Below, piece by piece: positions 10,358 to 64,000 of a DNA stretch of 64,000 nt. Source of the stretch: Nemertoderma westbladi (lineage: Eukaryota > Animalia > Xenacoelomorpha). Numbering within the stretch: the first letter of the stretch is position 1; every line of letters starts with the position of its first letter. The notes under the pieces are model-generated. The model worked only from the letters and a program-made list of their open reading frames with translations, had not been told where the DNA came from and did no database searches. The position numbers and the translations under genes are program-made. The stretch is from NCBI GenBank assembly GCA_032718475.1, contig JAUCBJ010003233.1, positions 8,742-72,741 on the forward strand, given 5' to 3'.

Positions 10358-11443
10358 ATGGGGAGAATCGTAGAAAATCGAACAAACAAACGACTGGGAA
10401 GAATATATTACGATGTTTCAAATGCTGCCGGTTTCGCGAGCATAACCAAACTAGCGAAAGCCGCTAAAGTTACGAGAAATCGTGCAAAGGAGTGGTTGAG
10501 CTCCCAACGAACGTATTCCCTACACGCGCCGGCTAGGCGCCATTACCCGACATCAAAAATTTTCACGGGCGGCATTGGAGATCTATATCAGGTGGACCTA
10601 TGCGATATGCAACCCTTTAGGGCGGAGAATAATGGTTATGGTTACATAATTACATGTATCGATTGCTTTAGTCGCAAGGCGTGGGCACTAGGGTTAAAAC
10701 GTAAAACCGGTGTCAAAATTAAACGCGCCCTAACCACGATATTCGAAGAAAGGAAGCCTAAACGACTAGCAGTTGATCAAGGAACTGAGTTTGTAAATAA
10801 ATTAGTGAAAGAATTCTTACAGAATAATAATGTTAATTTTTATACATTAGTTAGCCAATTTAAAGCTAGCTTCTGTGAGAGGCTGAACCGTACACTTAAG
10901 TCGAAAATGTATAAAGTGTTCACAAGATGGCAAAATAGGAAATGGATCAACATATTACCGAAGCTGGTAATTTCATATAATAATTCAATACATAGAACCA
11001 TCGGTATGGCGCCAAACTCAGTCAATAAAAATAATGAAACTGACTTATTTTTAAAACTATATGGCAGTGTGCGCCATCCCAATAAAAAGAAACGCCGCAA
11101 ACAGCGTCGAGTTCATTTCAAGGTTGGTGATAAGGTGCGGCTGAGTTTAGCTAGAAAGCCATTTGACAAAGGTTATATACCTAATTATACAGTAGAAATT
11201 TTCGAAATTTACAGAATAAGATTGGATCGAGAGCCGTACCCTATGTACGAAGTTGTGGATTCGAATGGGCACGTTATAAAGGGGACATTTTATCGACATG
11301 AAATCCAAAAGGTAAAAGAACCATTTAAATTCCTATCAATTGAAAAAATAATTAAAGAAAAAGTAAATAAAAGCGGCAAAAAGCAATATTTGGTTAAATT
11401 TGTTGGTTTTGCGGCACATCGATGGGTTGATCACGTACAATAA
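10358..11443 (+). CDS. Retroviral-type (c-integrase) DDE integrase with C-terminal chromodomain-like region
   Basis: QVDLCDM, IDCFSRKAW, VDQGTEF, CERLNRTLK, YNNSIHRTIGMAP, FKVGDKVR, YLVKFVGF. Confidence 0.95.
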   Translation: MGRIVENRTNKRLGRIYYDVSNAAGFASITKLAKAAKVTRNRAKEWLSSQRTYSLHAPARRHYPTSKIFTGGIGDLYQVDLCDMQPFRAENNGYGYIITCIDCFSRKAWALGLKRKTGVKIKRALTTIFEERKPKRLAVDQGTEFVNKLVKEFLQNNNVNFYTLVSQFKASFCERLNRTLKSKMYKVFTRWQNRKWINILPKLVISYNNSIHRTIGMAPNSVNKNNETDLFLKLYGSVRHPNKKKRRKQRRVHFKVGDKVRLSLARKPFDKGYIPNYTVEIFEIYRIRLDREPYPMYEVVDSNGHVIKGTFYRHEIQKVKEPFKFLSIEKIIKEKVNKSGKKQYLVKFVGFAAHRWVDHVQ

Positions 11444-27173: not shown

Positions 27174-27307
27174 AAACTATTTTGCGTGAGGCAAGCCACA
27201 TACAGTAGGGGATGTTGGATGTTACTAAAATAGGCACACAGTCAAACCCCACCGGGAGGAGGCACACAGGCCCACACTAAAATAGGCACACAGTCAAACA
27301 CAAGCGG

Positions 27308-29625: not shown

Positions 29626-29636
29626 GAGCAGTACTG

Positions 29637-29993
29637 TACTGTGGTAAGGCTGTCAGGTGTAGGCCTATTATTTGGAGCAGTTGCCAATGCAGCAATTTAC
29701 ATTGCTTCCATTTCATTTCTAGAACTAGTAGATTACGTAGTTGAATATATGGAATAGTTAGTTATTAGTGAATATTGCTTCTTGGATTGAAAAATTATGA
29801 AATATATAGAAAGTAGAAGTTTATTTACATTGCTTCCAGTGTGCTGGTCACTACTGTCTACTGGTGTATTCAGGTATTCCAGTATTGTAGAATTTAGGCC
29901 TACGGCTGTATGGTACCTAATGCTGTAATGCAAATTGCTGCATTGGCAACTGCTCCAAATACTAGGCCTACACCTGACAGCCTCACCACAGTA
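29637..29993. repeat. 69-bp inverted repeat with ~220-bp spacer
   Basis: 29637-29705 is the reverse complement of 29925-29993 with about 4 mismatches. Confidence 0.85.
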
Positions 29994-33512: not shown

Positions 33513-34038
33513 CTTTACCACCTATACCTATACCAGTAGTACCAGTAGGCTTACGACGTAGTTTATGTGTTCAACAAAAATCACATAAAAATTAAGCAAC
33601 TAACTTTTATAATTTTTTTCAATATTTACTAGCTAGTAAAACAAACACTAGCTGTAGCTACCAAAATAAAAATATTTACTAAGGTTCTATAATTAACTAG
33701 GCACTTGGCAAGGAAGTAGGACTAGAACATTCTACAAGAACATTCACCTAAAACACTCAAAAACACGATAAAATCAATGTTCAAAAATGGTCACACGAGC
33801 TATACTAGGGAGTGGCGTTACGTTACGTAGGGTAGGTTTGGTAGTGGTACCGGTACTGGAGGTTAGCTGTATGTTTGTTTCTGTGTTTGTTACATGTGTA
33901 AGTTCAGACTGGAAAGTTTGAAATGAAAGAACTGAACAGGAAGCAGTACCGGTAGTAGCCAGCCGATAAGTACAGTATAATTTACAGTTACACGATCCAT
34001 CAAAACAGTCGAAATCGTTGATTTAGAAAATAATAATC

Positions 34039-46000: not shown

Positions 46001-49000
46001 CTGACAATGTCGGAGTCTGAGGCGGCAGATGAGATGAAAATATCGATGTCGGATTCAGAGGCGGCTGATGAAATGACAATGTCGATGTCGGACTAAGAGG
46101 CGGCTGATGACATGACAATGTCGATGTCGGACTCAGAGGCGGCTGACGAGATGACAAAGTCGATGTCGGACTCAGAGGCGGCTGATGAGATGACAATGTC
46201 GATGTCGGACTCAGAGGCGGCTGATGAGATGACAATGTCGATGTCGGACTAAGAAAAGAGGCGGCTGATGAGATGACAATGTCGATGTCTGAGTCTGAGG
46301 CGGCAGATGAGATGACAATGTCGATGTCGGACTCAGAGGCGGCTGATGAGATGACAATGTCGATGTTGGACTAAGAGGCGGCAGATGAGATGACAATGTC
46401 GATGTCAGACTCAGAGGCGGCTGATGGGATGACAATGTCGATGTTGGAGTCTGAGGCGGCAGATGAGATGACAATGTCGATGTCGGACTCAGAGGCGGCT
46501 GATGAGATGACAATGTCGATGTCGGAGTCTGAGGCGGCAGATGAGATGACAATGTCGATGTCGGACTCAGAGGCGGCTGATGAGATGACAATGTCGATGT
46601 CGGACTTAGAGGCGGCTGATGAGATGACAATGTCGATGTCGGAGTCTGAGGTGGCAGATGAGATGACAATGTCGATGTCGGACTTAGAGGCGGCTGATGA
46701 GCTGACAATGTCGGAGTCTGAGGCGGCAGATGAGATGAAAATGTCGATGTCGGATTCAGAGGCGGCTGATGAAATGACAATGTCGATGTCGGACTAAGAG
46801 GCGGCTGATGACATGACAATGTCGATGTCGGACTCAGAGGCGGCTGACGAGATGACAAAGTCGATGTCGGACTCAGAGGCGGCTGATGAGATGACAATGT
46901 CGATGTCGGACTCAGAGGCGGCTGATGAGATGACAATGTCGATGTCGGACTAAGAAAAGAGGCGGCTGATGAGATGACAATGTCGATGTCTGAGTCTGAG
47001 GCGGCAGATGAGATGACAATGTCGATGTCGGACTCAGAGGCGGCTGATGAGATGACAATGTCGATGTTGGACTAAGAGGCGGCAGATGAGATGACAATGT
47101 CGATGTCAGACTCAGAGGCGGCTGATGGGATGACAATGTCGATGTTGGAGTCTGAGGCGGCAGATGAGATAACAATGTCGATGTCGGACTCAGAGGCGGC
47201 TGATGAGATGACAATGTCGATGTCGGAGTCTGAGGCGGCAGATGAGATGACAATGTCGATGTCGGACTCAGAGGCGGCTGATGAGATGACAATGTCGATG
47301 TCGGACTTAGAGGCGGCTGATGAGATGACAATGTCGATGTCGGAGTCTGAGGCGGCAGATGAGATGACAATGTCGATGTCGGACTCAGAGGCGGCTGATG
47401 AGATGACAATGTCGATGTCGGACTAAGAGGCGGCAGATGAGATATGACAATGTCGATGTCGGACTCAGAGGCGGCTGATAAGATGACAATGTCGATATCG
47501 GAGTCTGAGGCGGCAGATGAGATGACAATGTCAATGTCGGACTCAGAGGCGGCTGATGAGATGACAATGTCGATGTCGGACTAAGAGGCGGCAGATGAGA
47601 TATGACAATGTCGATGTCGGACTCAGAGGCGGCTGATAAGATGACAATGTCGATATCGGAGTCTGAGGCGGCAGATGAGATGACAATGTCGATGTCGGAC
47701 TCAGAGGCGGCTGATGAGATGACAATGTCGATGTCGGACTTAGAGGCGGCTGATGAGATGACAATGTCGATGTCGGAGTCTGAGGTGGCAGATGAGATGA
47801 CAATGTCGATGTCGGACTTAGAGGCGGCTGATGAGCTGACAATGTCGGAGTCTGAGGCGGCAGATGAGATGACAATGTCGATGTCGGACTCAGAGGCGGC
47901 TGATGAGATGACAATGTCGATGTCGGACTTAGAGGCGGCTGATGAGATGACAATGTCGATGTCGGAGTCTGAGGTGGCAGATGAGATGACAATGTCGATG
48001 TCGGACTTAGAGGCGGCTGATGAGCTGACAATGTCGGAGTCTGAGGTGGCAGATGAGATGAAAATGTCGATGTCGGATTCAGAGGCGGCTGATGAAATGA
48101 CAATGTCGATGTCGGACTAAGAGGCGGCTGATGACATGACAATGTCGATGTCGGACTCGAGGCGGCTGACGAGATGACAATGTCGATGTCGGACTCAGAG
48201 GCGGCTGATGAGATGACAATGTCGATGTCGGACTCAGAGGCGGCTGATGAGATGACAATGTCGATGTCGGACTAAGAAAAGAGGCGGCTGATGAGATGAT
48301 AATGTCGATGTCTGAGTCTGAGGCGGCAGATGAGATGACAATGTCGATGTCGGACTCAGAGGCGGCTGATGAGATGACAATGTCGATGTTGGACTAAGAG
48401 GCGGCAGATGAGATGACAATGTCGATGTTGGAGTCTGAGGCGGCAGATGAGATGACAATGTCGATGTCGGACTAAGAGGCGGCTGATGAGATGACAATGT
48501 CGATGTCGGAGTCTGAGGTGGCAGATGAGATGACAATGTCGATGTCGGACTTAGAGGCGGCTGATGAGCTGACAATGTCGGAGTCTGAGGATGCAGATGA
48601 GATGACAATGTCGATGTCGGACTCAGAGGCGGCTGATGAGATGACAATGTCGATGTCGGACTTAGAGGCGGCTGATGAGATGACAATGTCGATGTCGGAG
48701 TCTGAGGTGGCAGATGAGATGACAATGTCGATGTCGGACTTAGAGGCGGCTGATGAGCTGACAATGTCGGAGTCTGAGGTGGCAGATGAGATGAAAATGT
48801 CGATGTCGGATTCAGAGGCGGCTGATGAAATGACAATGTCGATGTCGGACTAAGAGGCGGCTGATGACATGACAATGTCGATGTCGGACTCGAGGCGGCT
48901 GACGAGATGACAATGTCGATGTCGGACTCAGAGGTGGCTGATGAGATGACAATGTCGATGTCGGACTCAGAGGCGGCTGATGAGATGACAATGTCGATGT

Positions 49001-49398
49001 CGGACTAAGAAAAGAGGCGGCTGATGAGATGACAATGTCGATGTCTGAGTCTGAGGCGGCAGATGAGATGACAATGTCGATGTCGGACTCAGAGGCGGCT
49101 GATGAGATGACAATGTCGATGTTGGACTAAGAGGCGGCGGATGAGATGACAATGTCGATGTTGGAGTCTGAGGCGGCAGATGAGATGACAATGTCGATGT
49201 TGGACTAAGAGGCGGCAGATGAGATGACAATGTCGATGTTGGAGTCTGAGGCGGCAGATGAGATGACAATGTCGATGTCGGACTCAGAGGTGGCTGATGA
49301 GATGACAATGTCGATGTCGGAGTCTGAGGCGGCAGATGAGATGACAATGTCGATGTCGGACTCAGAGGCGGCTGATGAGATGACAATGTCGATGTTGG
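34039..49398. repeat. 39-bp satellite array (~390 monomers) with higher-order structure
   Basis: Consensus gaggcggctgatgagatgacaatgtcgatgtcggactca; recurrent +5, +2 and -6 bp variants. Confidence 0.98.
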
Positions 49399-51009
49399 TG
49401 TTCGCGGTATTTCAACTTTCCATAACGCGAGTTGAATATTTTTGTATTTATTTAAAATTGATTATTCCGATATTACTACTGGGTGCGGGACCATGGGTTT
49501 TGGGCACATTCAATAAACTGGGGGCGATTTATGGGCGAACTTTGGGGCAACTTACAGGGTACGGGAATAATTTCATAGTTATAAGGGCCAGGGGGGATGG
49601 AAAATGCAAGCAGTATTCAGGTTAGCCTGAGTACTATTAGGCCCTGGCCAACTTCCTGCTGCCTGTAGGGGTGGATTTGGTAATGCGCCAGGCCTAAAGG
49701 ACAAGGACTGCCCTTAGCGGTCCCTGGCCAACAGCAGCCATTACGAGACTGAAAAGAACTCGGACCGCTGACTGCTTGTGTCAGGGATTTGCGACGGGCA
49801 CCGACGGCCCCTTAGTAGCCAAGCCGTTCTGGTTCTCGATGATCGTTCCCTTCGGGGTTCGTGAGGGGTGGAGCGGACACGCGAACGGGTGGCCAACTAA
49901 CGACTGCCCCCTGACCTAAGCCGTACTGGTTCTCGATGACCGATCCCTTCGGGGTTCGTGAGGGGTGGGACGGACATGCGAAAGGGCTGGCCACAGGACG
50001 GGTTTGACGAGAACTGCCCTTAGCGGTCTCTGGTCAACGGCAGCTACTACGAGACTGAAAAGAACTCGGAACGCTGACTGCTTGTACTGGGATTTGCGAC
50101 GGGAACCGACGACAGACCCCTTAGCCAAGCCGTACTGGTTCTCGATGATCGTTCCCTTCGGGGTTCGTGAGGGGTGGAACGGACACGCGATGGGGTCGAA
50201 AGACAAAGGACTAGACTCGACTAGACTCTACAGGCCTACCGACTGTTCGGAACAGTTTCTCGGCTGCCGAAGCGACTACGAGCCTGAAAGGGACTCGGAA
50301 AGCCTAGGTGGTTGGGTTTCTGCGATGAAACGACGGACCCCTAGCCAAGCCGTTCTGGTTCTCGATGATCGAACCCTTCGGGGTTCGTGAGGGGTGGAAC
50401 GGACACGCGAACGGGTCCACCGACATGACAGACTCCTAGCCAAGCCGTACTGGTTCTCGATGACCGATCCCTTCGGGGTTCGAGAGGGGTGGTACGGATA
50501 CGCGACAGAGTCTACCGACTGGACCGACCCTTAGCCAAGCCGGGCTGGTTCTCAATGATCGTTCCCTTCGGGGTTCGTGAGGGGTGGAACGGACACGCGA
50601 CAGGGTCGACCGACACTGACACTACGGCACTAAGACTAGGACCGAGGGAAAATCTGGGGAATATTAGGTAGGCTAAAATTCTGAGCAAACAGTGGGTAAT
50701 TAAATAATATACTGTAGGGATTTATATTATCGTGTATAATTATTGTGAATATTTGGTGTATATTGATTTGGGGAAGCCCAAAATTATTCTTAATCAAGTT
50801 TCAATGATGTTGAACAGGTTTCAACTATAGGAAGTTACATTAAAGAGTATATCCAACTAATGCAGCTTTTTATCAACCGCAAACTTGCATCTCAGAAAAC
50901 ATTCCCTCCCCACAATCAATATCCGGTGACTGGCCGGGGCTCGGTGGTCTGTTAAGTCACGTCTCCAGCATCGGCGTTTTTCCCCCCTGGTGTAGGGATA
51001 ACGGCAACA
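49399..51009 (+). repeat. 5' LTR (1611 bp)
   Basis: tgttcgcgg...ggcaaca; about 9 substitutions vs the 3' LTR by eye. Confidence 0.97.
49824..50592 (+). ncRNA. Array of six 53-nt K-turn/cUUCGg hairpins (5' LTR copy)
   Basis: CCGUWC UGG UUCUC GAU GA YCG..CCC UUCG GGG..CG U GA GGGG UG GWACGG at 49824, 49921, 50130, 50350, 50445, 50540. Confidence 0.75.
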
Positions 51010-51011
51010 AA

Positions 51012-51024
51012 ATTAAGAATAATT
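51012..51024 (+). promoter_or_regulatory. Atypical primer-binding site complementary to LTR 50782-50794
   Basis: ATTAAGAATAATT lies 2 nt after the LTR and is the exact reverse complement of AATTATTCTTAAT; no TGG tRNA-type PBS next to the LTR. Confidence 0.6.
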
Positions 51025-51260
51025 CATGCGGTTAATTTTGACAGGGTGTCAAAATTAAGGATAATTACGGTCAACTTCAACTGGTGGAAGTTGAGAATCC
51101 TTCAATACTCTTCAAAAACTCTCTACGTGCTTGCCAGCACCCACTACGAGGAAACTCTGGTATTTGAGTTGAGACAAAGTCGTGGTTTAATTAAGCAACA
51201 AACTCGATCTAACCAACTCGTAGTCGGCAGATCACATATTTGGAGAGTTGTTAACAGGGA

Positions 51261-51452
51261 ATGGAAGTATCGATCACACCCATTGATATAATTCAAGTTG
51301 AGCCAGGAATCTGGCACGTCGAAGTTGAGGTACAAGGAACGAACGTTGGACGATTCAGGATTACTGTTCGGGTGGTCCAAGCTGAGTACAATACCTACGA
51401 GGAACTGTTTTACGACATCGCGTATCTAGCCATCGATGAGGCGTTACAATGA
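51261..51452 (+). CDS. 63-aa upstream ORF overlapping the gag start (ATGA)
   Basis: Its TGA stop overlaps the gag ATG at 51449-51452; alternating beta-strand pattern followed by an acidic helix. Confidence 0.5.
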   Translation: MEVSITPIDIIQVEPGIWHVEVEVQGTNVGRFRITVRVVQAEYNTYEELFYDIAYLAIDEALQ

Positions 51453-54400
51453 CAACAAATAACGTATCCGATACCGACGAGATGGATCACCACACAGACT
51501 CGGAAGCCGACGAGGTACCAAACGTCAAGAACATGACCCGTCGGTTAGGGGCTCTTAAAGGCGGAGTAACCCGAGCGTATCAACGGATGGAGAAACAACT
51601 CAAGGGAGTCAAAACCCCCCTCAATGAGGTACAAACTCAGCTTCAAAGTATCCGAAATATCCTACAGCGGTACGAAAGAATGATACAGGCGTACCAAGAG
51701 CTCGTTCCCCCCACCGATCAGGAAAACTACCCCAAGTTGGAAGAACACGTTGTACATCTAGATGGGTTCCGCAAACAACACCGGAGGACCCTCAGTCTTG
51801 TGAGAGGCTATGAGGAACAGTATTACAAGAGGGCTGACGCGGAATCAGTACGATCCTCCAGCATCAGGACAACAGTACATCGAAAGAGAACGGGGTCCGC
51901 TAGAAATCAGCACTCCAGCGCTAGGAGCGAGATATCCGGCTCGGCGCGCAGTTCTCAAGGGGCGCCGCCACTCCGAGACCAACTGTGAGAACGGAAGGCA
52001 TTAGCCCTCAAAGCTCGGATGGAAGATGAGTATATTCAACTGCAAGCCGAGCAAGATGTATTAGCCGCCGAAACACAAAAGCGAGAGGCCGAACAAGCGG
52101 CCGAACGGCAGGCCGAACAACGTGAACAGGAGGCCGAACAACATAGACGAGAGGCCGAACGGCAGGCTGAACAACGTGAACAGGAGGCCGAACAACATAG
52201 ACGAGAGGCCGAACGACAGGCCGAACAACATAGACGGGAGGACGAACGACAGGCCGAACAACGCAAACAGGAGGCCGAACAACATAGACGAGAGGCCGAA
52301 CGACAGGCCGAACAACATAGACGGGAGGACGAACGACAGGCCGAACAACGCAAACAGGAGGCCGAACAACATAGACGAGAGGCCGAACGACAGGCCGAAC
52401 AACATAGACGGGAGGACGAACGACAGGCCGAACAACGCAATCAGGAGGCCGAACAACGCGGACGAGAGGCCGAACGAGAGATCGAACAACGTAAATGGGA
52501 AGCGGAAATGCGTAAACAACACGCCGAGGCCCAAGCAATTCTCATCCACAAAAAGAATGCGGACATTGCAAAACTCGCAGAATACGAAGCCGCACTTATC
52601 GAACGAGATATTCAACTCTACGAGGACTGGGAAAGGGATATAGATAAGGAATATGAACCAATTCCGGTACCGGAGTTAGAAAAGTCATTTACACCAACAG
52701 CGGCGAAACCTCCGAAACCCGAGATCCCGCCTACCAAACAGTCTACGCTATCGGCACAAGCCCCGGTGTTCCATCCCCCACCAGCTACGCTAAAGAATGA
52801 GGAACCTTATTTCCCATCCAACACCACGACAGCGAGTGTACCCAAGTACGAGCCTGAAAGGGACTCGGAACGGGACGCCACTCCCCGATCTAACAACCCA
52901 TTTACATCCACACCACAAACTCGTAGCCGCGTCATTATTAAAACTCCACCTATTATTGATCCATCAAGTATGGGAGTGAGTGCTAATAACTATAACCCTC
53001 CGAGTCACTCTAGTTCAGACGACGTCAGCATCATCCGGGCGTTGGAGAACCGCCTTGCCATGCCTAAGATGGAGATTCGCACCTTCGAAGGAGATCCCGT
53101 CGATTACCTCAGATTCAAGAAACGGTTCTTTGCGCAGATCGGATCAACGGACATAGCCGACACACAGAAATTGGTATATTTATCGCAATACCTGGGTGAC
53201 AAACCACGCAGAATTGTTGCATGTTTTGAAGGAGGTTCTCATGAGGCATACTATGACGCATGGAAAACCCTAGATAAAAGATACGGAAATACCGGAACTA
53301 TAATTAATAAAACTCTAGAGAGACTGATACAGGACGCGGGATCACTAGGGGACCCACAGAACATACAGGAATTCTCCGACTCTATGAAGGATGCATACTA
53401 TACTTTGAAACCCTTAAATAAGGAGGACCAGGTGAACAACATTCTAAACCTCCGACAGATCGCCAAGAAGTTCCCCGGATGGCTACAAAGTAAGTGGGCT
53501 TATAAATGTGTAGATCTCCGGCGCAGACATCCAGATCGAGATCCTAGCTTCCTTGAAATGTCGGCATTCCTGGACGATATCTCCGAAGCCATGAATGACT
53601 CAATGTTTTCAAAACAAAGTCTCGCAAAGTTGGACGGAATAGAGAGCAACTCCAGGAGTAAGATAACCCCTCCGAAACCGAGATTCCGCCCCCCACCGAT
53701 AAGTACGATGGCCATTACCATGGCCGAGGATTCCGACGACGAAGACTACGAGGAACCGACATCCGCCGAGGAATGGGCATGTTATCTCGCGAGTTGGGCA
53801 CCCGAAAGGGAAGGCGTCACAAATTCCCTGCTCTGTCTCTTCTGTGGGGAGAAACACAAAGTGGAATTCTGCAGAAAGTTTCAGTTCGCCGAACTCGTCC
53901 CACGCTTCGAGGCGATAATGAAACACCGAGGATGCTTCCGGTGTCTTGGAACAGGTCACTATGTTCGGGAGTGCGACCAAAGATCATGCTGTACAGTCTG
54001 TAACGACCAACGCCATCACACGCTCCTCCACATCCCCGCGAACTTCGATTTTACTACCCTCCCCTTTCGGATCGAAGCCAGGCGAAGAGGAGAAACAAAC
54101 CACATCTTCAAAGGAACCCGGACAACCCAACGGAGAGAAACCAACCCGTTTAAGATCTCCACCGATACACCACAAGTAACCAATATTTCGGCCACGATTA
54201 ATCTTATAAATCGCCGCTACATGGTTTTCGCAAAGGTAATCCCAGTAAGGATCCAAGGAGTCAGCAAATCTTTGACGACACTCGCGTTCCTCGATAACGG
54301 GTCTGACGGAACCATCATCGACCGGGATTTCCTCGAGCAACTCGGCCTAGAATATGAACCTTGTAAACGGCCCATACAAACCATCACCGATAACAGAGAA

Positions 54401-57400
54401 GTAGAGTCCGGGGAGGTACAACTCCAGATGGAAGGAGTGATGAAGGGCTACGAAACGGCTAAGTTAACCATCAAGAACGCCTTGGTACACACAGACCTCC
54501 GGGTGCGGTTCCGACAATCAGCCGAGTACGCCCCCCTCATACAATTGGACCGAGACGATGTAGACCTGAGGTGTCCGCAGTTGGACGTGAACCGTATCAC
54601 CCTACTGATTGGACTTGATACACCGGAACTACACATCCCCACCGGAGATATCGCTCGATCTATAAACCAGGATGATGGATTTTATGCTGAACGAACAATA
54701 ATGGGATGGACACTCTGCGGCATTAAGGAGGAAACTACGGACACCTATACCTACCTTCCTAAATGTCAGATTAAAGAGAATGTAACCTCTGTGGGTTATT
54801 GCTCAGCTTCAGATCTTGACGAGGATTTGTTCCTGGAAACCGAGAAAACCCAACGAGAGATGACGAAATATTTTAATTTGGAGACCCAGGAGTTCGCGGA
54901 AAAGGACGAAAACCCATCCGAAGAGGACCAATATTGTATGGACGTTCTCGACCAGGCCACGTTTAAAGACGGACATGGGTGTTCACCTATGTTATGGAAG
55001 GACCCAAACAAACCAATGGCAAACAACGCCAGCATGGCACTTAGGCGACTTAAAGGGATTCTACGCCGGCTGAATGACCAACCCGAGATAAAGGAGAAAT
55101 ATAATACCGTAATCCAAGGATATCTCGATGATGGATTAGCAGAAATGGTACCACGGAATGAACTGCAAGGTGGTGAAAGAACATATTATCTCCCAACCCA
55201 CTATGTAGTAGAAGCCCGCAAAGGTGGGAAAATCCGAGTGGTAAATGATGCTGCCGCTATGTACCAGGGCGAATCCCTAAACAGTCAACTTTACACGGGA
55301 CCCAACATATATAGCACACTCATTGGCGTATTGATCAGGTTCAGGGAAAACCGGGTAGCATTCACCTGTGACATCAAGGCCATGTTTCATCAAGTTCGTA
55401 CGTTACCAAGAGACTCGGACTGTCTACGTATCCTATGGACGGATAAAACACTCACTCAACAGGAGATTAGCCAACTCACGATCAAGGATGTAGACGTAAT
55501 GCGTATGGTCGTCAGGATCTTCGGCGCTAAGGACTCGCCGGTAGCATGCAGTGACATGCTAAAGAGGACAGCAACTATGTGCGAAAACGAGTTCCCTCCA
55601 ACCGTCATAGAAACCATTCGACGATGCTTCTACGTGGACGACGGATGCGCCGGCGCGGATAATGTGGATGAGGCATATCGGCTAGCAATGGGGATGGTAG
55701 AATGTCTGAAGAAAGGAGGGTTTCCGCTCGTGAAATTCAGATCCCACGACAAAACACTTAAGGAAAAGTTTCCGGAGGACATCCGGCTGGATAATAACAA
55801 GATGTATTCGGAGGATGTGGAACATCGTGTACTTGGGATTGAATGGGACATAGAATCAGACGAATTCATCTTCAAGTATAAACCCCTACCCAAGCCTATG
55901 ACAAAAAGGGGATGTTTGTCGATAAAAAGCGCCATCTTCGACCCACTAAATTTCATATCTCCAGTAACCTTGGCCGGAATGAACCTGATTAAGGAAATGT
56001 GGATAGAAGGACTGGGATGGGACGAAGAGCTCCCCCCATACCTCAGCGTCAAATGGAGAAAATGGACGGAGCAGCTCGAACACCTACATCTTATGCGGAT
56101 ACCTAGACCGTTCTTCCTCGATAAATTGCCCACCGATATCTTCCAGCTCCACACCTTTTCGGATGCTTCAAATACCGGAATCGGCGTAGTCACCTTCCTA
56201 CGGAGACTAAGTAATGATGGAAACGGCGATACAAGCTTCTTATTCTCCAAAGCAAAGACAGTATCCGGGGAATTCGTAGCAACGATCCCGAGACTCGAGC
56301 TACAAGCTGCAGTTTGGGCAGTAAGACAGAATCGCATGGTCATGCGGAATCTACGGATCCCCATAGAATCACAACACTTCTGGGTAGATTCGAGTATAGT
56401 TCTCTATTATCTCCACTCTCCATCACGGCGTCACACCACGTTTGTTGCAAACCGAGCCACGGAGATTAAACAGTGTACCGGCCGAGAACAGTGGCATCAC
56501 GTGAACGGGAAGGAAAACCCAGCGGACTTATCAAGCCGAGGCGCCACCCCAAAACAACTCGGTAAAAGTGAACTCTGGCTTACAGGCCCGGAATTCCTAC
56601 GGCAGCCACAATTAACATGGAGTACCCGATTCGACCCCGAGCTCGATAGCGGAAAATACTCCGAGGACGATAAAGAGATCCGTAAAATCCATCGAAGCAA
56701 CGCGGTGGAAATTTATAGTTGTCTGACTGAGCCTGCAAAGGACTCGGGCAGGCACTATAACGTCGCGACGATCACCCAACTAGCGGCGTCTTTACATCGG
56801 TTGATCGAGCGAACTTCATCCATGAGACGGCTCGTCCACCACGTTATAACCCTTCGCAACTTCCTACGGTGGAAAAACAACAAACCGATAGTTCAACGGA
56901 ATATACAAGAACTCATTATCGCGGAGAAGTGTATTGTTAGATATGTCCAGAAAGAAAGTTTCCCCGATGAATGGGAACAACTTAGTGCGGGCAAAACGTT
57001 GAAACCGGACAGCCCAGTCTACCAACTGAGACCAATGATGGGAGAGGACGGACTGATCCGACTGAATACCCGGATGGCAAACGCCCCGGTCCAATATGAG
57101 GTTAAATACCCAGCGCTTCTGCCCGGAACGTCGACACTAGCTAAGCTATTAATTCTACAATGTCACGAGGACAACCACCACGCAGGACAGAATTGGATTA
57201 TAGCTAATATAAGACAAAGATATTGGATCACCCACATCCAGCCACTGATCCGGAAAGTGTTGAAACGTTGCTTCACCTGCAGATGTTACCTAGCGCCACC
57301 AATCACCCAAAAGATGGCCGACTTACCAGCCACCCGTCTACAAGCGGATTCCCCACCATTCTACGTCACCGGAGTGGACTGTTTCGGACCGTTCACGGTT

Positions 57401-58336
57401 ATTGAACGACGATCCAACATCAAATGCTGGGGAGCCATCTTCACCTGCCTAAGATCTAGGGCAATTTACCTAGATATCGTGGTAAATCTGACACAACACG
57501 CATTCATCAACGCTCTGCGTCGGTTCGTGGCGAACAACGGGACATGCCGCCACATGTATTCCGATAATGGTACAAACTTTGTGGGAGGAGAAAGAGAACT
57601 TAGAGAGGCGATCGAGGGATGGTTTACCGATAACACTGCATCCCAAGTCTGGAAGGAACACCAGATACAGTGGCACTTCCAGACCCCCTTAGCACCCCAT
57701 ACGAGCGGGGTATGGGAGAAACTGATCGACCTAGTGAAACGATCCATGCGCGTCGCTCTAGGCGATACCCGGGTAACCCATGACACCCTCCGCACAACAT
57801 TCTGCGAGATCACGGCTACCCTGAACAACCGACCCATTGTTCCTATCCGCGACGACCCCACAGACCTGGAACCCCTCACTCCTAACCACTTACTGGGGAG
57901 ACCCAAAACCCACCTCCTCCCGGAAACCATGTTCCCGGATCCCAACGAGATCGCGAAACACACAAACTGGAAAAAGGCCCAAGCGTTGGCAGCGCATTGG
58001 TGGAGAATTTGGGCCCAGGAATACCTCATAACCCTCCGGACCAGGAGGAAATGGAACAACACCTACCGGAACGTCACAGTTGGCGACATGGTACTAGTTA
58101 AAGAAGATCTCAAAGACCGCGTTCACTGGCCTGTGGCGCGGGTCGTGACCATACACCCAAGCAAAGACGGACTTGCGAGGACTGTGACGATACGAACGAA
58201 ATCGGGCCACTACCAACGCCCCATCCAAAAGCTGTGCCTTCTTGAAGGCAATGATAGCGGTGATTCTACGAGAGGTGATAAGATCCCTACTCAAGATACT
58301 GCTGTGGACATCGGTGACAATGATAAATGTGTTTAA
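51449..58336 (+). CDS. Bel/Pao Gag-Pol polyprotein with a single in-frame TGA (51986-51988)
   Basis: ORFs 51449 and 52019 share a frame; FEGDPVDY, three Cys/His knuckles, protease LDNGS, RT YVDD, RNase H FSDAS, integrase GVDCFGP/SDNGTNF/WEKL. Confidence 0.93.
52085..52490 (+). repeat. Coding tandem repeat forming an E/R/Q-rich coiled coil in Gag
   Basis: Repeated gaggccgaacaacatagacga / cgacaggccgaacaa units (EAERQAEQHRR). Confidence 0.9.
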
Positions 58337-58616
58337 ACCCTTCTCATCATGTTGACAAACTCCTTTTAAACTGTGATTTATCGACAACGAGTTATGGACC
58401 CCCTTTAAACCAACTGTAACCACGCAATGGTATTTGTGTTTCCTCGTGTGTTATGTGGAGTCCAGCGTCACCCTGCAGATGTTTCGGCTGACGCAGGGTC
58501 GTTTATGCATTGTTTACCCTGATTTTGGTCATCAGGACCTACGATATTGGATTATTGGAAATGGAAAAGATTTGAAGTGGAATTCATTGTATTCATCGCA
58601 GTATGTTATGTTGTCC

Positions 58617-59032
58617 GTTGCGTGCGCAGTTCGGGGCGTAGGCGGTGTAACGAGTCCAGCTGTAGATCCCGGATCGCCGCGCAACACCCCCTCTATCCCG
58701 TTATTCTGGTGGGTCCATGGTGCATCCACATGACTTCGAAGATAGAGGGTTTTATGTTTCTCAGTCGCGTTATTCTGGTGGGACCGTTGCGTGGATTTTG
58801 GGGCGTAGGCGGTGTAACGAGTCCAGCTGTAGATCCCAGAATGTTGCGTAACCCCATCCCACATGACTTCGTCGACTGAGCTTTATGTTGTTGGGAGTGT
58901 TATTCTGGTGGGTCCATGGTGCATCCACGTGACTTCACTCTCAGCGTCTTCATTGTCCGTTACGTGCGCAGTTTGGGGCGTAGGCGGTGTAACGAGTCCA
59001 GCTGTAGATCCCAGATTGCCGCGTAACACCCC
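58617..59032 (+). ncRNA. Triplicated ~75-nt structured RNA in the pol-ORF2 intergenic region
   Basis: Copies at 58617, 58786, 58959 with invariant core ggggcgtaggcggtgtaacgagtccagctgtagatccc and a compensatory closing stem. Confidence 0.6.
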
Positions 59033-59581
59033 TTCCACGACAAAGATTAACCAAAGAAAATGATTGAATATAGTTGGAAACGATGAAAAGGATCAGACAA
59101 CTCTACTATAAACCTGAATGATGACGTGTATACTGATGAAAATGTAATGATGCGCACCCTGGTGCTGCGCTTATAACAAATGATGATAGCCGGGGGGCTA
59201 TAAACCCAATGATGATGTGGAAATAAATAAATATGAAATAAATGGTGGAAATAAATGTGTTGAAATATGTGGAAATAAATGAAATGAGATGAAATAATAA
59301 TGAAATGAAAAAAGAAAAAAAAAAGGTATAAAAAAGTCTAAAGAAAAGAATTAGAAAAAAGAAAGGACAAAAAAGTCATAAAAAACTGGTTGGATATTAT
59401 GTATAGCTATAGTAACTGTAAATGCTGAATGTATTAGCAATAAGATGATAGATGCCTATATAGCAATGTTATTAATAAACTGAATTAAATAAAAAACTGA
59501 ATTATTCTGCTATCGCTATAGTTTCAGACTTTCTGGACTTATAATTAACTGATCTAATTTGTAACGGATATAATCGTAAAT

Positions 59582-62182
59582 ATGGACCCAAATCGCCAAA
59601 TTATCGGCGAATTACGTAACACGATAGATCTACTGGAATATTCGCAACCCGGATCCCCTGACTTTGATACAAATTGGAACACTCTGCTAAATGAGAACGT
59701 GCGAGTCATTAAATTCACCGGGCGAGAGGGACCGGATTCTAAGAATCTACTAGCCCTCCGGTTAGCCGATGCTAGTACGAGACTGAAAAGAACTCGGAAC
59801 GCAAAGGCAACCGGAGGGGACGATTCGTCGTTTTGGGAAACGTTCCGGCAGAGCGTCTACAGATCCCGATGTTTGATCTACGACAACGAGGGAAACGCGA
59901 CGCCCACCTCAAAAGCGATTACGTTGGCGAGATGTCAAAGTTTCGTCGACGACAAGAGTACATACCTCGCCCACTGGGGAAACCTGTCGGAGTGTACGGC
60001 GACGCTTCGAGAGGAACGCATATCGATTATCCAAAACCGCGACGACTACCAGGAAAAGTACGGGGCGAAAGAATACGGTCGATCCTTAGTCGTCGTCCTC
60101 GGAACCCTGGACGGTTTGGTACTGGTGTGCCGAATATTCCCGACACCCAGACAGGAAGTGCAGACAGCCGGAGCGATCTGGTTGCTGCCTCCGGAAATCC
60201 AAAAGATCCTCTTCGACTTCGACGTCATTAAAATCGGGGCGGATATCAAGGCGGACGTCCGGAACGACTACGCGAACGCTCCTGCAGGAAGAAACCGACG
60301 AGACGACCTCAACGCCCTTAGCCATTGCATCGACACTCAAACGCTACTAGCCTGGGTACGATTCGCCGAGTTCATGCGAGGATTCCAAGAGGTGAGACCG
60401 ACGAAATCAGGGATCGGCTACCTCGCTGTGCTCAACGGCGGTATCGACTTCAAACCCCAGAAATTCCGGGACTATAATAAAATATATGGTGGATACCCGG
60501 GATTGGAAATAAAGAGCGAGCGAGAGGGTCGATGGAAGGACGTTGATCGGAAGTGGACGATACACCAAAGGTGGGAGAATCCCGATCGACGGAACTACGT
60601 TTACGTCGTTATGGAATGCTACACCGTCGCTAAGTTTATCTGTAAAACTCTAGATAACCTCATCACGGCGGTCCCCCTTTCCTTTGTCGACTACGACTGG
60701 AACGAGGTTATAAACCACGCGTTTAAAGCGGTCGAGAACATTACACCGGGAGAATCAAAAACGCCCGCCGTTATCGATTCCTGGGACGAGAGCGGACCTT
60801 ACGACATCCCTACGATTACCGAACTTCTCGGTGCGGAGGAGCCTCTGATCTCTTCGGAAGGAGAAGAGATATGGCTAAACGAGGGTGTTCTACTCTCCAC
60901 CCCGAAGCGACAACTCGAGCCGGAGGCCGCGTATGGACCGGCCGCCAAACGGGTTGCCTCGGCCGAACCGATGAAGAGAGCAGGCGTTTACACCCCACGC
61001 GGCTCTGGTAGCCCCACGAGGGAGGTGGCTACTACAGCTGCATTGAGCGACTTCGGCGACATATGCCAACGGTTATCCCCGTATCCTTTCCCGGGCGGCG
61101 AAGATTGGTCGTCGGAGATTCCGAGTACCAGCCACCAACGGACCCGCTCAGCGATACTGGTCGAGGAGGGCCCCAGCGATGCGCCGACACCCGACGATCT
61201 CCTCGGTATCCCTCCGTCGAAAACCCCGGCACCTCTTCGTCGACCAGCGGTGGCTACTACACCCGCCGTTCCTCAGGACCCTATGCGACTAACCCGTTGG
61301 TACGCCGAGCAAACTGAATGGATCCACCGCCAGAAACGGTCATCCGAGTTGAGACCAGCGGGACACAAAGAAGGTTATCGGAGCGAGAACCTACTACGCA
61401 AAAGCCTAGCATTCCGCGGGCTACCGACCACCGAGAATATTCCGAAGAGCGACCGACGACTCGAATACTACGTCGGCGTCCCGATTCCGATATTTCCTGG
61501 TCGAGAGATGCAGTTGGAGGTATGCGGCGACTGCGGTTCGGAGCAGTGCCCACGCAGCAGAAGGAATCGGGTTACCGATTCTTGCCTCCAGCTCCTCGGG
61601 ATACTCTATTGCCCATACTGCGCGACATCAGGCCACGACGTTTCCGTCTGCCCGATCCTTTATAACCTCTGCACCACGTGCGGTTTCCGTGGACATTCCT
61701 CTAGCCCCCGCTGCTATATCAAATGTCCAACCAAAGACGTTACCGCTATGGGAAATATGGTCATGTTTGAAACATACGCAAACAGCCACTTAAAGACCAA
61801 GATTCGGAGAAACGCTCGGAATATTGCGCAGGAGATGGCGTGTGGATATTTCTCCTTCCCGGAACGCCTCCACACGTCGGCCACGCTACCTTTCCATTAC
61901 GTGGATCTGCAACTGAGCGCCGGATTATTCGGTCCATTTGAAGTCATTAGACGATTATACTCGTATAAAGAGGAGTTCGGTGACGGAGAATGGTTCCTAG
62001 AGGCACGCAAATCTGAGTTGGAAAGACGAACCGACATGATCCCCATGCCTTCGAAAGGAAGAGCCGCCAGGAGACAAGCCGAAGCGTTACTCACGATGGA
62101 TGTTGACGCTCCTCTACCAGCCATAGCGATCGATGAGAGTCGACGGGCGAAGAGACGAAAGGCGTATCAGAGAAAGAAATAG
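59582..62182 (+). CDS. Accessory ORF2: DEDDy/WRN-like 3'-5' exonuclease domain plus CCHC zinc knuckles (866 aa)
   Basis: ExoI IYDNEG; LPPEIQKILFDFDVIKIGADIKAD (ExoII); CIDTQ; YVVMECY (ExoIII, E for D); CPYCATSGHDVSVC and CTTCGFRGHSSSPRC. Confidence 0.8.
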   Translation: MDPNRQIIGELRNTIDLLEYSQPGSPDFDTNWNTLLNENVRVIKFTGREGPDSKNLLALRLADASTRLKRTRNAKATGGDDSSFWETFRQSVYRSRCLIYDNEGNATPTSKAITLARCQSFVDDKSTYLAHWGNLSECTATLREERISIIQNRDDYQEKYGAKEYGRSLVVVLGTLDGLVLVCRIFPTPRQEVQTAGAIWLLPPEIQKILFDFDVIKIGADIKADVRNDYANAPAGRNRRDDLNALSHCIDTQTLLAWVRFAEFMRGFQEVRPTKSGIGYLAVLNGGIDFKPQKFRDYNKIYGGYPGLEIKSEREGRWKDVDRKWTIHQRWENPDRRNYVYVVMECYTVAKFICKTLDNLITAVPLSFVDYDWNEVINHAFKAVENITPGESKTPAVIDSWDESGPYDIPTITELLGAEEPLISSEGEEIWLNEGVLLSTPKRQLEPEAAYGPAAKRVASAEPMKRAGVYTPRGSGSPTREVATTAALSDFGDICQRLSPYPFPGGEDWSSEIPSTSHQRTRSAILVEEGPSDAPTPDDLLGIPPSKTPAPLRRPAVATTPAVPQDPMRLTRWYAEQTEWIHRQKRSSELRPAGHKEGYRSENLLRKSLAFRGLPTTENIPKSDRRLEYYVGVPIPIFPGREMQLEVCGDCGSEQCPRSRRNRVTDSCLQLLGILYCPYCATSGHDVSVCPILYNLCTTCGFRGHSSSPRCYIKCPTKDVTAMGNMVMFETYANSHLKTKIRRNARNIAQEMACGYFSFPERLHTSATLPFHYVDLQLSAGLFGPFEVIRRLYSYKEEFGDGEWFLEARKSELERRTDMIPMPSKGRAARRQAEALLTMDVDAPLPAIAIDESRRAKRRKAYQRKK

Positions 62183-62337
62183 TGGATCGGGATATTCCAG
62201 GAACATTTATCGAACATTTATTTTTATACAAACTCTAGGCCAAATTAATTAAAAACTATGCAATATTAAATTTGGGTTTTTTATATTGGAATGACCTACG
62301 CAAACTCAATCGACCGACAGACTTCACGAAGGTCATT

Positions 62338-62346
62338 GGGGGGGAC
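62338..62346 (+). promoter_or_regulatory. Polypurine tract
   Basis: GGGGGGGAC immediately before the TG of the 3' LTR. Confidence 0.75.
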
Positions 62347-63957
62347 TGTTCGCGGTATTTCAACTTTCCATAACGCGAGTTGAATATTTTTGTATTTATT
62401 TAAAATTGATTATTCCGATATTACTACTGGGTGCGGGACCATGGGTTTTGGGCACATTCAATAAACTGGGGGCGATTTATGGGCGAACTTTGGGGCAACT
62501 TACAGGGTACGGGAATAATTTCATAGTTATAAGGGCCAGGGGGGATGGAAAATGCAAGCAGTATTCAGGTTAGCCTGAGTACTATTAGGCCCTGGCCAAC
62601 TTCCTGCTGCCTGTAGGGGTGGATTTGGTAATGCGCCAGGCCTAAAGGACAAGGACTGCCCTTAGCGGTCCCTGGCCAACAGCAGCCATTACGAGACTGA
62701 AAAGACCTCGGACCGCTGACTGCTTGTGTCAGGGATTTGCGACGGGCACCGACGGCCCCTTAGTAGCCAAGCCGTTCTGGTTCTCGATGATCGTTCCCTT
62801 CGGGGTTCGTGAGGGGTGGAGCGGACATGCGAACGGGTGGCCAACTAACGACTGCCCCCTGACCTAAGCCGTACTGGTTCTCGATGACCGATCCCTTCGG
62901 GGTTCGTGAGGGGTGGGACGGACATGCGAAAGGGCTGGCCACAGGACGGGTTTGACGAGAACTGCCCTTAGCGGTCTCTGGTCAACGGCAGCTACTACGA
63001 GACTGAAAAGAACTCGGAACGCTGACTGCTTGTACTGGGATTTGCGACGGGAACCGATGACAGACCCCTTAGCCAAGCCGTACTGGTTCTCGATGATCGT
63101 TCCCTTCGGGGTTCGTGAGGGGTGGAACGGACACGCGATGGGGTCGAAAGACAAAGGACTAGACTCGACTAGATTCTACAGGCCTACCGACTGTTCGGAA
63201 CAGTTTCTCGGCTGCCGAAGCGACTACGAGCCTGAAAGGGACTCGGAAAGCCTAGGTGGTTGGGTTTCTGCGATGAAACGACGGACACCTAGCCAAGCCG
63301 TTCTGGTTCTCGATGATCGAACCCTTCGGGGTTCGTGAGGGGTGGAACGGACACGCGAACGGGTCCACCGACACGACAGACTCCTAGCCAAGCCGTACTG
63401 GTTCTCGATGACCGATCCCTTCGGGGTTCGAGAGGGGTGGTACGGATACGCGACAGAGTCTACCGACTGGACCGACCCTTAACCAAGCCGGGCTGGTTCT
63501 CAATGATCGTTCCCTTCGGGGTTCGTGAGGGGTGGAACGGACACGCGACAGGGTCGACCGACACCGACACTACGGCACTAAGACTAGGACCGAGGGAAAA
63601 TCTGGGGAATATTAGGTAGGCTAAAATTCTGAGCGAACAGTGGGTAATTAAATAATATACTGTAGGGATTTATATTATCGTGTATAATTATTGTGAATAT
63701 TTGGTGTATATTGATTTGGGGAAGCCCAAAATTATTCTTAATCAAGTTTCAATGATGTTGAACAGGTTTCAACTATAGGAAGTTACATTAAAGAGTATAT
63801 CCAACTAATGCAGCTTTTTATCAACCGCAAACTTGCATCTCAGAAAACATTCCCTCCCCACAATCAATATCCGGTGACTGGCCGGGGCTCGGTGGTCTGT
63901 TAAGTCACGTCTCCAGCATCGGCGTTTTTCCCCCCTGGTGTAGGGATAACGGCAACA
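62347..63957 (+). repeat. 3' LTR (1611 bp), including six K-turn hairpins at 62772-63540
   Basis: Near-identical to 49399-51009 at offset 12948. Confidence 0.97.
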
Positions 63958-64000
63958 GTTGGACTAAGAGGCGGCAGATGAGATGACAATGTCGATGTTG
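63958..64000. repeat. 39-bp satellite resumes
   Basis: gttggactaagaggcggcagatgagatgacaatgtcgatg continues the interrupted monomer. Confidence 0.95.

Follow-up and report, generated by a model that had tools for sequence, protein, structure and literature searches.

A recurrent sense-strand hairpin in the LTRs, gag, pol and ORF2 of a BEL/Pao retrotransposon of Nemertoderma westbladi, a putative protein-docking RNA module

The BEL/Pao element and its features

The window (the whole 64-kb stretch of Nemertoderma westbladi DNA that was analysed) harbors one 14.6-kb LTR retrotransposon (49399-63957), which hosts all the hairpins described here (Table 1). Its assignment to BEL/Pao is based on the Pfam domains, the TG..CA LTRs and the short target duplication. 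The Pfam matches of the gag-pol product were Peptidase_A17 (6.7e-38), DUF5641 (2e-28), DUF1759 (4.9e-15) and Integrase_H2C2 (2.5e-07), and the closest relatives of pol are 38% identical to it. The gag-pol frame contains one in-frame TGA (51986-51988), and gag encodes one CCHC knuckle, at 53933. The element is young, its two LTRs being 99.4% identical (nine differences in 1611 nt).

ORF2 matched no Pfam family at the default threshold, and its seven remote homologues have no assigned function. Its CCHC knuckles weakly resemble the lin-28 and retroviral nucleocapsid (NC) knuckles (E 0.02-0.08), and the structure prediction for its N-terminal domain reached a pLDDT of only 37.9. In the same domain, the strings D-x-E, G-x-D-I-K-x-D and Y-x3-E can be recognized by eye, and a language model gave a weak lead (score 0.82) to proteins with PF01612 and zf-CCHC; the assignment to the PF01612 exonucleases is not supported by Pfam, where one of the eight family members gave a match (E 0.2) and none did at the default threshold. 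An extra ORF downstream of pol is also found in the bdelloid LTR elements Juno and Vesta, whose ORF3 encodes a DEDDy exonuclease, as stated in an excerpt of PMC5408684; unlike the element described here, these belong to Ty3/gypsy.

In the LTRs, the hairpins belong to larger tandemly duplicated blocks (D16, D12, D13) and interleave with the R88 repeats, which within the window are confined to the LTRs and each of which is predicted to form a long, G-U-rich hairpin with the cap CCC-UUCG-GGG. The segment at 50782..50794 is predicted to be the RNA 5' end and self-primer; the region complementary to it starts 2 nt past the 5' LTR, a complementarity of 13 nt being reached in 0/2000 and 1/2000 shuffles, and TATAAT (50746-50751) lies 31 nt upstream. 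All the LTR hairpins would be located upstream of this predicted transcription start, i.e., in U3, so that the genomic RNA would carry the gag, pol and ORF2 copies plus three copies in the 3' UTR.

Table 1. Coordinates of the element, its hairpins and associated features within the window.
Feature	Position	Strand	Core match	Remarks
5' LTR	49399..51009	+		1611 bp, TG...CA; identity scan at offset 12948
3' LTR	62347..63957	+	62692, 62998, 63227	three hairpin cores
Target-site duplication GTTGG	49394-49398 and 63958-63962			5-bp; flanks the element on both sides
gag-pol reading frame	51449..58336	+		DUF1759 gag, Asp protease, Peptidase_A17, integrase H2C2, DUF5641
ORF2	59582..62182	+		866 aa; two CCHC knuckles at 61610 and 61670
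H_a, 5' LTR	49717..49792	+	49744	covariance model 60.4 bits; core module 49736-49769; outer helix CAGC/GCUG; loop CAUUA/GACC
H_b, 5' LTR	50023..50097	+	50050	covariance model 61.9 bits; core module 50042-50075; loop UACUA/GAAC
H_c, 5' LTR	50259..50316	+	50279	covariance model 55 bits; C..G..G variant; loop GACUA/GAAA; outer helix GC/GC, then 10-bp stem with G-U pairs
H_gag	52836..52878	+	52849	covariance model 53.4 bits; outer helix CCC/GGG; loop AAGUA/GAAC
H_pol	56713..56760	+	56728	GCAA loop on a long stem, without asymmetric internal loop
H_ORF2	59754..59818	+	59778	covariance model 60.6 bits; loop UAGUA/GAAC; outer helices UGC/GCA and GCC/GGC, then 10-bp stem
R88, six 88-nt repeats per LTR	49812..50615 (5' LTR)	+		repeat family D12
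Candidate RNA 5' end / self-primer	50782..50794	+		13 nt perfectly complementary to 51012-51024

Recurrence and architecture of the hairpin

The initial annotation had described a GNRA hairpin occurring three times per LTR and again in gag and ORF2. This was confirmed by a search for the 19-nt core CGAGMCTGAAARGRACTCG with up to two mismatches on both strands of the window, using shuffled sequences as the control: nine matches were found, all on the forward strand and all inside the BEL/Pao element, versus 0.00 expected (any match in 0/100 shuffles). The three in the 5' LTR, those in gag and ORF2 and two in the 3' LTR (62998 and 63227) are exact; the remaining 3' LTR match has one mismatch, at the bulged A, and that in pol, with a GCAA loop, has two. 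An imperfect palindrome, CGAG...CUCG, is embedded in the core. Eight hairpin copies align over 47 nt (repeat family D15).

A sequence-agnostic descriptor (3-bp outer helix, NANUA, stem with a GNRA loop, GAM) recognized six true sites and one AT-rich spurious site on the sense strand of the element, none on its antisense strand, none in the other 49.4 kb (both strands) and one in 490 kb of relatives (both strands). The hairpin motif is essentially absent from background sequence. The covariance-model search that had been proposed as a check retrieved only the element's copies within the window (model R1). Among relatives, the motif was found in 0/80 related BEL/Pao loci and in none of three contig collections. 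Rfam 15, searched over 49000-64000, gave no match at E<=1, and so none to a described CTE or RRE; H_ORF2 alone gave just a chance lncRNA match (E 0.83) and no rRNA match.

In the minimum-free-energy folds, one predicted architecture is common to the five sequence contexts (three per LTR, gag and ORF2), in which an outer helix is followed by an asymmetric internal loop (NANUA/GAMM) and by a stem of 7 bp that contains a bulged A and ends in a GAAA loop. The inner hairpin and the internal loop are identical in fold across the contexts, and the outer helices vary in sequence (CAGC/GCUG, GC/GC, CCC/GGG, UGC/GCA). Watson-Crick helices are present on both sides of the loop in 5/5 contexts, the inner one being CGAG/CUCG and the outer one having at least 2-4 bp. 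The tetraloop is of the GNRA type throughout, since the closing pair of GAAA is U-A or U-G in eight copies and that of GCAA, in pol, is U-A.

The initial annotation had also compared the internal loop to the sarcin-ricin (bulged-G) motif, with AGUA/GAA strands. These strands, lying beside a C-G pair as in that motif, occur in 2/5 contexts, namely gag and ORF2; the LTR copies read AUUA/GAC, ACUA/GAA and ACUA/GAA, and thus, unlike the consensus, carry U or C in place of the bulged G. The U-A, A-G and A-A(C) positions are kept in all five contexts. According to PMC8450098, the bulged G is nearly invariant, with rare natural variants carrying C, U or A, its replacement costs about 5 kcal/mol in model duplexes, and the CC, UC and AC combinations that the element has at the "lower" non-canonical pair are natural ones. 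As far as can be judged from sequence, the loop assignment fits fully in gag and ORF2, and in the LTR copies except at the bulged base. Differently from the rRNA sarcin-ricin loop, the motif here caps a 17-nt stem-loop, not a GAGA tetraloop.

The coding copies are read as had been claimed: H_gag encodes KYEPERDSE, in a Pro/Ser/Thr-rich gag linker, and H_ORF2, located 172 nt past the ORF2 ATG, encodes ALRLADASTRLKRTRNAKATGG and is read STRLKRTRN, in a frame other than that of the gag copy. The motif is a nucleotide-level feature, independent from the reading frame and the encoded peptide, and its gag and ORF2 copies are read in two different frames. The ORF2 copy does sit on a perfect 10-bp stem, CCCUCCGGUU/AACCGGAGGG. 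As for the pol variant, the GCAA loop and the long stem stood up, and the asymmetric internal loop is missing; the covariance-model match is partial (model positions 12-28, 15 bits, E 0.06). H_pol falls within an insertion of about 20 aa missing from 17/17 aligned relatives, and the linker with H_ORF2 is about 10 aa longer than in 4/5 homologues; judging from these alignments, both hairpins occupy element-specific linker insertions.

Sense-strand folding and DNA-level alternatives

In the predicted folding, the sense strand was more stable than the antisense strand in 15/15 modules, and in 9/10 modules tested this excess was larger than that of composition-matched shuffles (native value reached by at most 17/300 shuffles). 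Base composition alone does not explain why the sense strand folds more favourably. H_a and H_b differ at seven positions in the 5' part of the hairpin and at eight over the 80-nt repeat; three of the seven were assigned to paired positions, where these changes, C>U or A>G, preserve pairing as G-U.

These data bear on the possibility that the LTR copies are DNA-level transcription-factor sites in U3 enhancer repeats, the coding copies being by-products without any RNA role. Tandem repeats in U3 are usually DNA enhancers; the LTR copies are embedded in such tandem blocks, would precede the predicted TATA box and start of transcription, and contain an imperfectly palindromic core. We consider this explanation unlikely, since it accounts neither for the copies in gag, pol and ORF2 and the pairing of their unrelated flanks, nor for the sense-strand G-U bias, nor for the RNA-specific loops (the GNRA tetraloop and the maintained U-A, A-G and A-A positions).

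The pairing of the flanks was also compared with that of synonymous recodings. H_ORF2 exceeds all other copies in stability (-33.3 kcal/mol, z -6.87), and its flanks had a z of -4.38 and were equalled in 0/1000 recodings; those of H_pol had a z of -2.75 (10/1000). The flanks of H_gag were no more stable than the recodings (z +1.24), and simple arithmetic gives a chance expectation of about 5% for its 3-bp CCC/GGG helix. Over the aligned copies, 91.7% of the pair cells contain standard pairs, versus 15-47% with the partners slid; both sides of the outer helix change in 2/3 pairs between copies, and the differences between the two core variants keep or improve pairing. All of this covariation is between paralogous copies, since only one element, with two nearly identical LTRs, was examined.

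Over 24-27 nt, the gag core is identical to that of H_c, and the ORF2 core to that of H_b; outside the core the copies lose similarity within a few bases. Such identity could mean recent copying rather than purifying selection. It might be proposed that the coding copies are neutral scars, i.e., that a hairpin-forming piece of the LTR was copied into linkers of gag, pol and ORF2 that tolerate insertions, possibly through reverse-transcriptase template switching at hairpins, and persists only through the youth of the element. In addition to the shared cores, the placement of the pol and ORF2 copies at insertions with respect to homologues, the few LTR differences and the lack of the motif in any relative speak for this idea, to which we would assign a low probability: similarity stops just beyond the core, whereas every coding copy is provided with complementary flanks of its own, among them the perfect ORF2 helix that no synonymous recoding equalled in stability; the core variants differ by changes compatible with pairing; and three in-frame, non-disruptive insertions in three genes are unlikely without selection.

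A putative docking site for an RNA-binding protein

The explanation that we favour, and to which we would give roughly an even chance, is that the hairpin is a reiterated sense-strand RNA module, a putative docking site for one RNA-binding protein. According to this model, a module of about 34 nt would be written five times per RNA-length of the element, with a looser variant in pol, and would fold in the sense RNA into the outer helix, the sarcin-ricin-like loop, the bulged-A stem and the GAAA tetraloop; we infer that the hairpin forms in vivo. A single protein might read the invariant inner hairpin and loop, candidates being the NC of Gag, the CCHC knuckles of ORF2 or a host factor, and once bound it could mark the element RNA for packaging selection, nuclear export or localisation. 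The distributed protein-binding operator suggested by the initial annotation is thus partly supported. Against the docking model stand the U or C that the LTR copies have at a nearly invariant position, the predicted location of these copies in U3, the ordinary stability of the gag flanks, the core identities that recent copying could explain, and the lack of the motif in the relatives searched.

Repeated packaging motifs include the alphavirus GGG-loop repeats and the MLV GACG hairpin pair. Like the MS2-type, coronavirus, alphavirus and MLV motifs, the hairpins are several small stem-loops with an invariant loop or bulge, partly coding and located on one RNA; unlike them, they are near-identical in sequence and spread across 10 kb, in U3 and three genes, and a subgenomic ORF2 mRNA, if made, would carry some of them as well. 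The simian type-D CTE and the Rev/RRE system, in turn, rely on structured cis RNA with reiterated internal-loop sites in the 3' part of the genome and export intron-containing RNA; the hairpin has no sequence or Rfam similarity to them and a different type of internal loop. Dispersed packaging signals and repetitive structural motifs have been treated as a concept, as excerpts of PMC8206606 and PMC4836477 indicate. In the literature searched, neither cis-acting RNA signals of BEL/Pao elements nor dispersed repeated structural packaging-type motifs in LTR retrotransposons were found described.

Three further possibilities have to be weighed. The GNRA loops might dock into helical receptors, compacting or dimerising the genomic RNA with no protein involved; every copy does carry a GAAA or GCAA tetraloop and the LTR contains many further stable hairpins, which might act as receptors, but this appears quite improbable, given that reading the repeats revealed no canonical 11-nt GAAA receptor within a helix, and that tetraloop docking alone needs neither an invariant inner stem nor a sarcin-ricin-like loop. 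The AGUAC...GGAAC flanks of the gag and ORF2 copies also occur in rRNA, where they frame the tetraloop in the 28S sarcin-ricin loop and helix IV in eukaryotic 5S rRNA. It is conceivable, and in our opinion highly improbable, that the hairpin mimics one of these ribosomal bulged-G modules, either the stem of the 28S sarcin-ricin loop or the loop E-helix IV arm of 5S rRNA, borrowing a host factor for RNA export, localisation or translation; such a factor might be an export adaptor that binds 5S rRNA (of the TFIIIA/uL18 type) or a translational GTPase, which would offer a Rev-independent route in germ cells, and the linker insertions in three genes would raise the hairpin dose on the full-length RNA. 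Lastly, that ORF2 regulates its own translation through its copy of the hairpin, as the initial annotation had suggested, with the other copies titrating the same protein, is scarcely probable: this copy is the most stable and ORF2 has two knuckles weakly resembling those of lin-28 and retroviral NC, but a site so far downstream of the start codon is a poor place to block initiation, and the N-terminal domain is predicted with such a low pLDDT.

Going back to the docking model, the hairpin represents an unusually clean candidate cis-acting RNA signal for BEL/Pao elements, with textbook loops, a distribution over the LTR and three genes, and two reading frames. If it is a copying scar instead, it would document hairpin-driven template switching that carries LTR sequence into coding regions. 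If the docking model is true, the hairpin would provide a handle, via pull-down and CLIP, on RNA selection, export or packaging, and would represent a natural case of RNA modules placed into protein linkers.

Recurrence and predicted fold of the hairpin

The hairpin core CGAGMCTGAAARGRACTCG, searched with up to two mismatches, occurs nine times in the window, always on the + strand and always within the BEL/Pao LTR retrotransposon, whereas 0.00 matches are expected from dinucleotide shuffles. The recurrence in LTR, gag, pol and ORF2 described in the initial annotation is thus borne out, as are the peptides that it had read across two of the coding copies, i.e., YEPERDSE in gag and, in a different frame, STRLKRTRN in ORF2. 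The pol copy (EPAKDS) lies in the same frame as the gag copy. Two of the coding copies share identical stretches with LTR copies, of 24 nt between gag and LTR copy c and of 27 nt between ORF2 and LTR copy b.

Positions of the features described in the window
Feature	Position	Strand	Remarks
BEL/Pao LTR retrotransposon, complete	49399-63957	+	Pfam, LTRs, target duplication
5' LTR	49399-51009		1611 bp, TG...CA
Hairpin cores, 5' LTR	49744, 50050, 50279	+	
R88, six 88-nt repeats per LTR	49812-50615 and 62760-63563		Interleaved with the hairpins
TATAAT	50746-50751		31 nt upstream of 50782
ATTAAA	50838-50843		In the LTR
Hairpin core, gag	52849	+	
Hairpin core, pol	56728	+	Two mismatches, GCAA loop
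83-nt repeat, three copies	58611-59035		pol-ORF2 spacer; contains GGGGCGUAG
ORF2, 866 aa	59582-62182		Two CCHC knuckles, no Pfam family
Hairpin core, ORF2	59778	+	
3' LTR	62347-63957		1611 bp, TG...CA
Hairpin cores, 3' LTR	62692, 62998, 63227	+	
39-nt satellite array	~34000-49398 and 63958-64000		Reach back to ~34 kb from the skew profile; repeats listed from 44000 only
Other mobile-element remains	10358-11440, 16549-17610, 24935-29713	-	

In each context, the minimum-free-energy fold contains an identical inner hairpin, CGAG-(A/C)CU-GAAA-(A/G)G(A/G)-A-CUCG, placed on a 5-nt/4-nt internal loop and then on an outer helix whose sequence depends on the context: CAGC/GCUG, GC/GC plus a 10-bp G-U-rich stem, CCC/GGG and, in ORF2, UGC/GCA plus GCC/GGC. 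The perfect 10-bp stem that had been claimed for the ORF2 copy is also predicted. Other details hold in part: the AGUA/GAA strands attributed to the hairpin are present in gag and ORF2 but not in the LTR copies (AUUA/GAC, ACUA/GAA and ACUA/GAA), and the pol variant does possess a GCAA loop but lacks the asymmetric internal loop, being matched only partially (15 bits, E 0.06) by R1, the covariance model built from the hairpin copies.

In the six-row alignment, standard pairs occupy 91.7% of the pair cells, compared with 15-47% when the partners are slid by one to three columns, and both sides have changed in 2/3 of the outer-helix pairs. At three positions the two core variants diverge: where one has an A-A mismatch plus U-A, the other has C-G plus U-G. 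The inner stem with its bulged A, the tetraloop and those internal-loop positions that pair do not change from one context to the next, while the outer helix varies freely; this combination would be expected of a module whose partner recognises both its sequence and its shape.

The flanks of the coding copies were recoded synonymously with the core kept fixed (n=1000). None of the 1000 recodings was as stable as the native ORF2 flanks (z -4.38) and ten were as stable as those of pol (z -2.75); the gag flanks showed no excess stability (z +1.24), so that the gag copy is carried by its 3-bp CCC/GGG closure alone. In all 15 modules folding is more stable for the sense than for the antisense strand, and this difference exceeds that of composition-matched shuffles in nine of the ten modules tested, the exception being ORF2, which has no G-U pairs. 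A background descriptor that disregards the inner-stem sequence retrieved six true sites and one AT-rich false site on the sense strand of the element, none on its antisense strand, none on either strand of the remaining 49.4 kb, and one in the 490 kb of related elements, both strands searched. Computation shows that the motif recurs, where its copies sit, how they are predicted to fold and which strand is favoured; the mechanism is what we infer.

The host element, ORF2 and the placement of the coding copies

The LTR pair, whose members differ at nine positions, is flanked by the 5-bp duplication GTTGG, the element being inserted within an array of GTCGGACTCAGAGGCGGCTGATGAGATGACAATGTCGAT-like 39-nt satellite repeats with a strong G-over-C skew. 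The 2105-aa frame (52019-58336) matches Peptidase_A17 (6.7e-38), DUF5641 (2e-28) and the gag domain DUF1759 (4.9e-15) in Pfam, together with Integrase_H2C2 and an aspartyl protease. From its start at 51449, gag runs into this long frame through one in-frame TGA (51986-51988), which splits its first 179 codons from the 2105-codon gag-pol frame and may be either a defect of the present copy or a read-through site. The N-terminal part of gag (52037-52558) consists of 33/21-nt tandem repeats encoding a (EAEQHRREAERQAEQ)-like charged helix. In a collection of 5.8 billion proteins, the closest pol proteins are just 38% identical, those with a named source belonging to sea urchins, a tunicate, a barnacle and other animals. 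The element therefore represents a lineage that branches deeply and has no close relatives with annotation. The other mobile-element remains of the window include a chromodomain integrase of the Ty3/gypsy type, a weak RAG1/Transib-like match and a second BEL/Pao fragment (integrase, Peptidase_A17) adjoining a LINE (RVT_1 and endonuclease). The hairpin was found in none of them.

ORF2 is separated from the gag-pol frame by a 1.2-kb spacer. No word-level homologues of it were found; a full HMMER search disclosed seven remote ones, on contigs of 2-11 kb, none with a Pfam domain or an informative name. This small unannotated family shares an N-terminal domain, a cluster of CCHC knuckles and a C-terminal FE.YA..G..T block, and a profile search of the PDB returned the knuckles only, which weakly resemble those of lin-28 and NC. 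DEDDy-exonuclease-like strings can be seen by eye in the N-terminal domain; this reading is weak, with an atlas score of 0.82, one of eight members matching PF01612 at E 0.2, and a poor predicted fold of the domain (pLDDT 37.9).

As for the coding copies, none of the 17 aligned relatives has the insertion of about 20 residues that the pol hairpin fills. The linker holding the ORF2 hairpin precedes the first conserved block and is about 10 residues longer than in four of the five homologues covering the region. In gag, the copy is embedded in the Pro/Ser/Thr-rich linker that separates the coiled-coil repeats from the DUF1759 domain. At all three sites the protein should tolerate a sequence imposed by the RNA. 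The hairpins might instead be neutral copying scars left by template switching, a view that accords with the element being young, with the insertions and with cores of identical sequence; it is at odds with the private complementary flanks and with three tolerated in-frame insertions, and we hold it to be unlikely.

Searches in related elements and in RNA families

Motif scans of metagenome, viral and prokaryotic-genome contig collections did not find the motif. In a set of 80 BEL/Pao metagenome loci (490 kb, 33-40% pol identity) fetched by pol alignment, R1 gave only two chance-level partial matches (E 7.6 and 7.8); being trained on near-identical copies, the model would overlook versions that have diverged strongly. 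The dispersed 15-mer repeats of these loci, many of which lack LTRs, fall almost entirely on terminal-repeat diagonals, and the handful of off-diagonal 15-26-nt matches form no stable hairpin. No ORF2 homologue was detected in the 80 loci by tblastn, searches with ORF2 alone returned no related loci, and viral contigs searched with the pol alignment yielded none. Within the collections searched, the motif is confined to the present lineage.

The whole element has no Rfam match at E<=1, and the ORF2 hairpin alone gave one chance lncRNA match. A hammerhead, a k-turn/box C/D or a 5S or LSU fragment, each suggested by visual inspection of the LTR repeats, are therefore without support.

Predicted transcript and possible role of the hairpins

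Just after the 5' LTR, where a primer-binding site is expected, no TGG-type tRNA site is present. A 13-nt LTR stretch (50782-50794) is perfectly complementary to 51012-51024, 2 nt past the 5' LTR, a length reached by none of 2000 whole-LTR shuffles and by one of 2000 shuffles of the AT-rich segment. Complementarity between the LTR and the region following it is the layout of self-priming elements such as Tf1, and this suggests a Tf1-like self-priming in a BEL/Pao element. On this layout transcription would begin near 50782, and a poly(A) site is predicted after the ATTAAA. In that case U3 would contain the three hairpins of each LTR together with its six R88 repeats, and the full-length RNA would carry them once, in its 3' UTR, in addition to the gag, pol and ORF2 copies. 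The fold predicted for R88 is a long G-U-rich hairpin with a CCC-UUCG-GGG cap and a 5-nt AUGAU bulge, not more stable than shuffles in five of the six copies; it was not found outside the LTRs, so that the hairpin alone is distributed. That the LTR copies are DNA enhancer repeats in U3 is comparably improbable to the copying scars: it would account for them, leaving the coding copies and the compensating flanks unexplained.

The 83-nt repeats of the pol-ORF2 spacer show a predicted 24-25-bp hairpin, a strong sense-strand bias and a compensatory change between copies (GUUGCG/CGCAAC versus GUUACG/CGUAAC), and could be a signal for ORF2 expression. ARAGORN found no tRNA genes in the window and does not support a tRNA-like identity of these GGGGCGUAG-containing repeats.

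Both sarcin-ricin-type loops and GNRA tetraloops are well known as surfaces on which proteins and RNAs dock. Given loops resembling these in an invariant module, a reiterated protein-binding site is therefore favoured, and we give an even chance to a putative site of this kind conferring a common fate on the RNA of the element. The module would be held out on any convenient helix for its partner, which might be Gag (one CCHC knuckle), ORF2 (two knuckles) or a host factor; as a rough weighting, the common fate would be packaging selection first, then export or localisation. The internal loop can be aligned with the sarcin-ricin motif at each position (flanking C-G, sheared A-G, U-A, bulged base, A-A(C) and a variable non-canonical pair). 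For this last, "lower" pair the copies show CC, UC and AC, all of them included among the natural combinations of the motif in PMC8450098, where a bulged C or U is described as rare in nature and destabilising. Docking of the hairpins to RNA rather than to protein is very unlikely, no receptor having been seen, and slightly less credible still is a translational operator in ORF2, that hairpin lying 172 nt into the ORF, a poor position for such a role.

A reiterated protein-binding site would work similarly to retroviral export elements and to the repeated structural packaging motifs of RNA viruses, with neither of which there is a sequence or Rfam match. No description of a distributed hairpin of such a kind in an LTR retrotransposon was found in the open-access literature. 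Drawn from one element and from computation, the distributed hairpin is a candidate cis-element, and a clean, testable one, in BEL/Pao, a family for which that literature knows of none.
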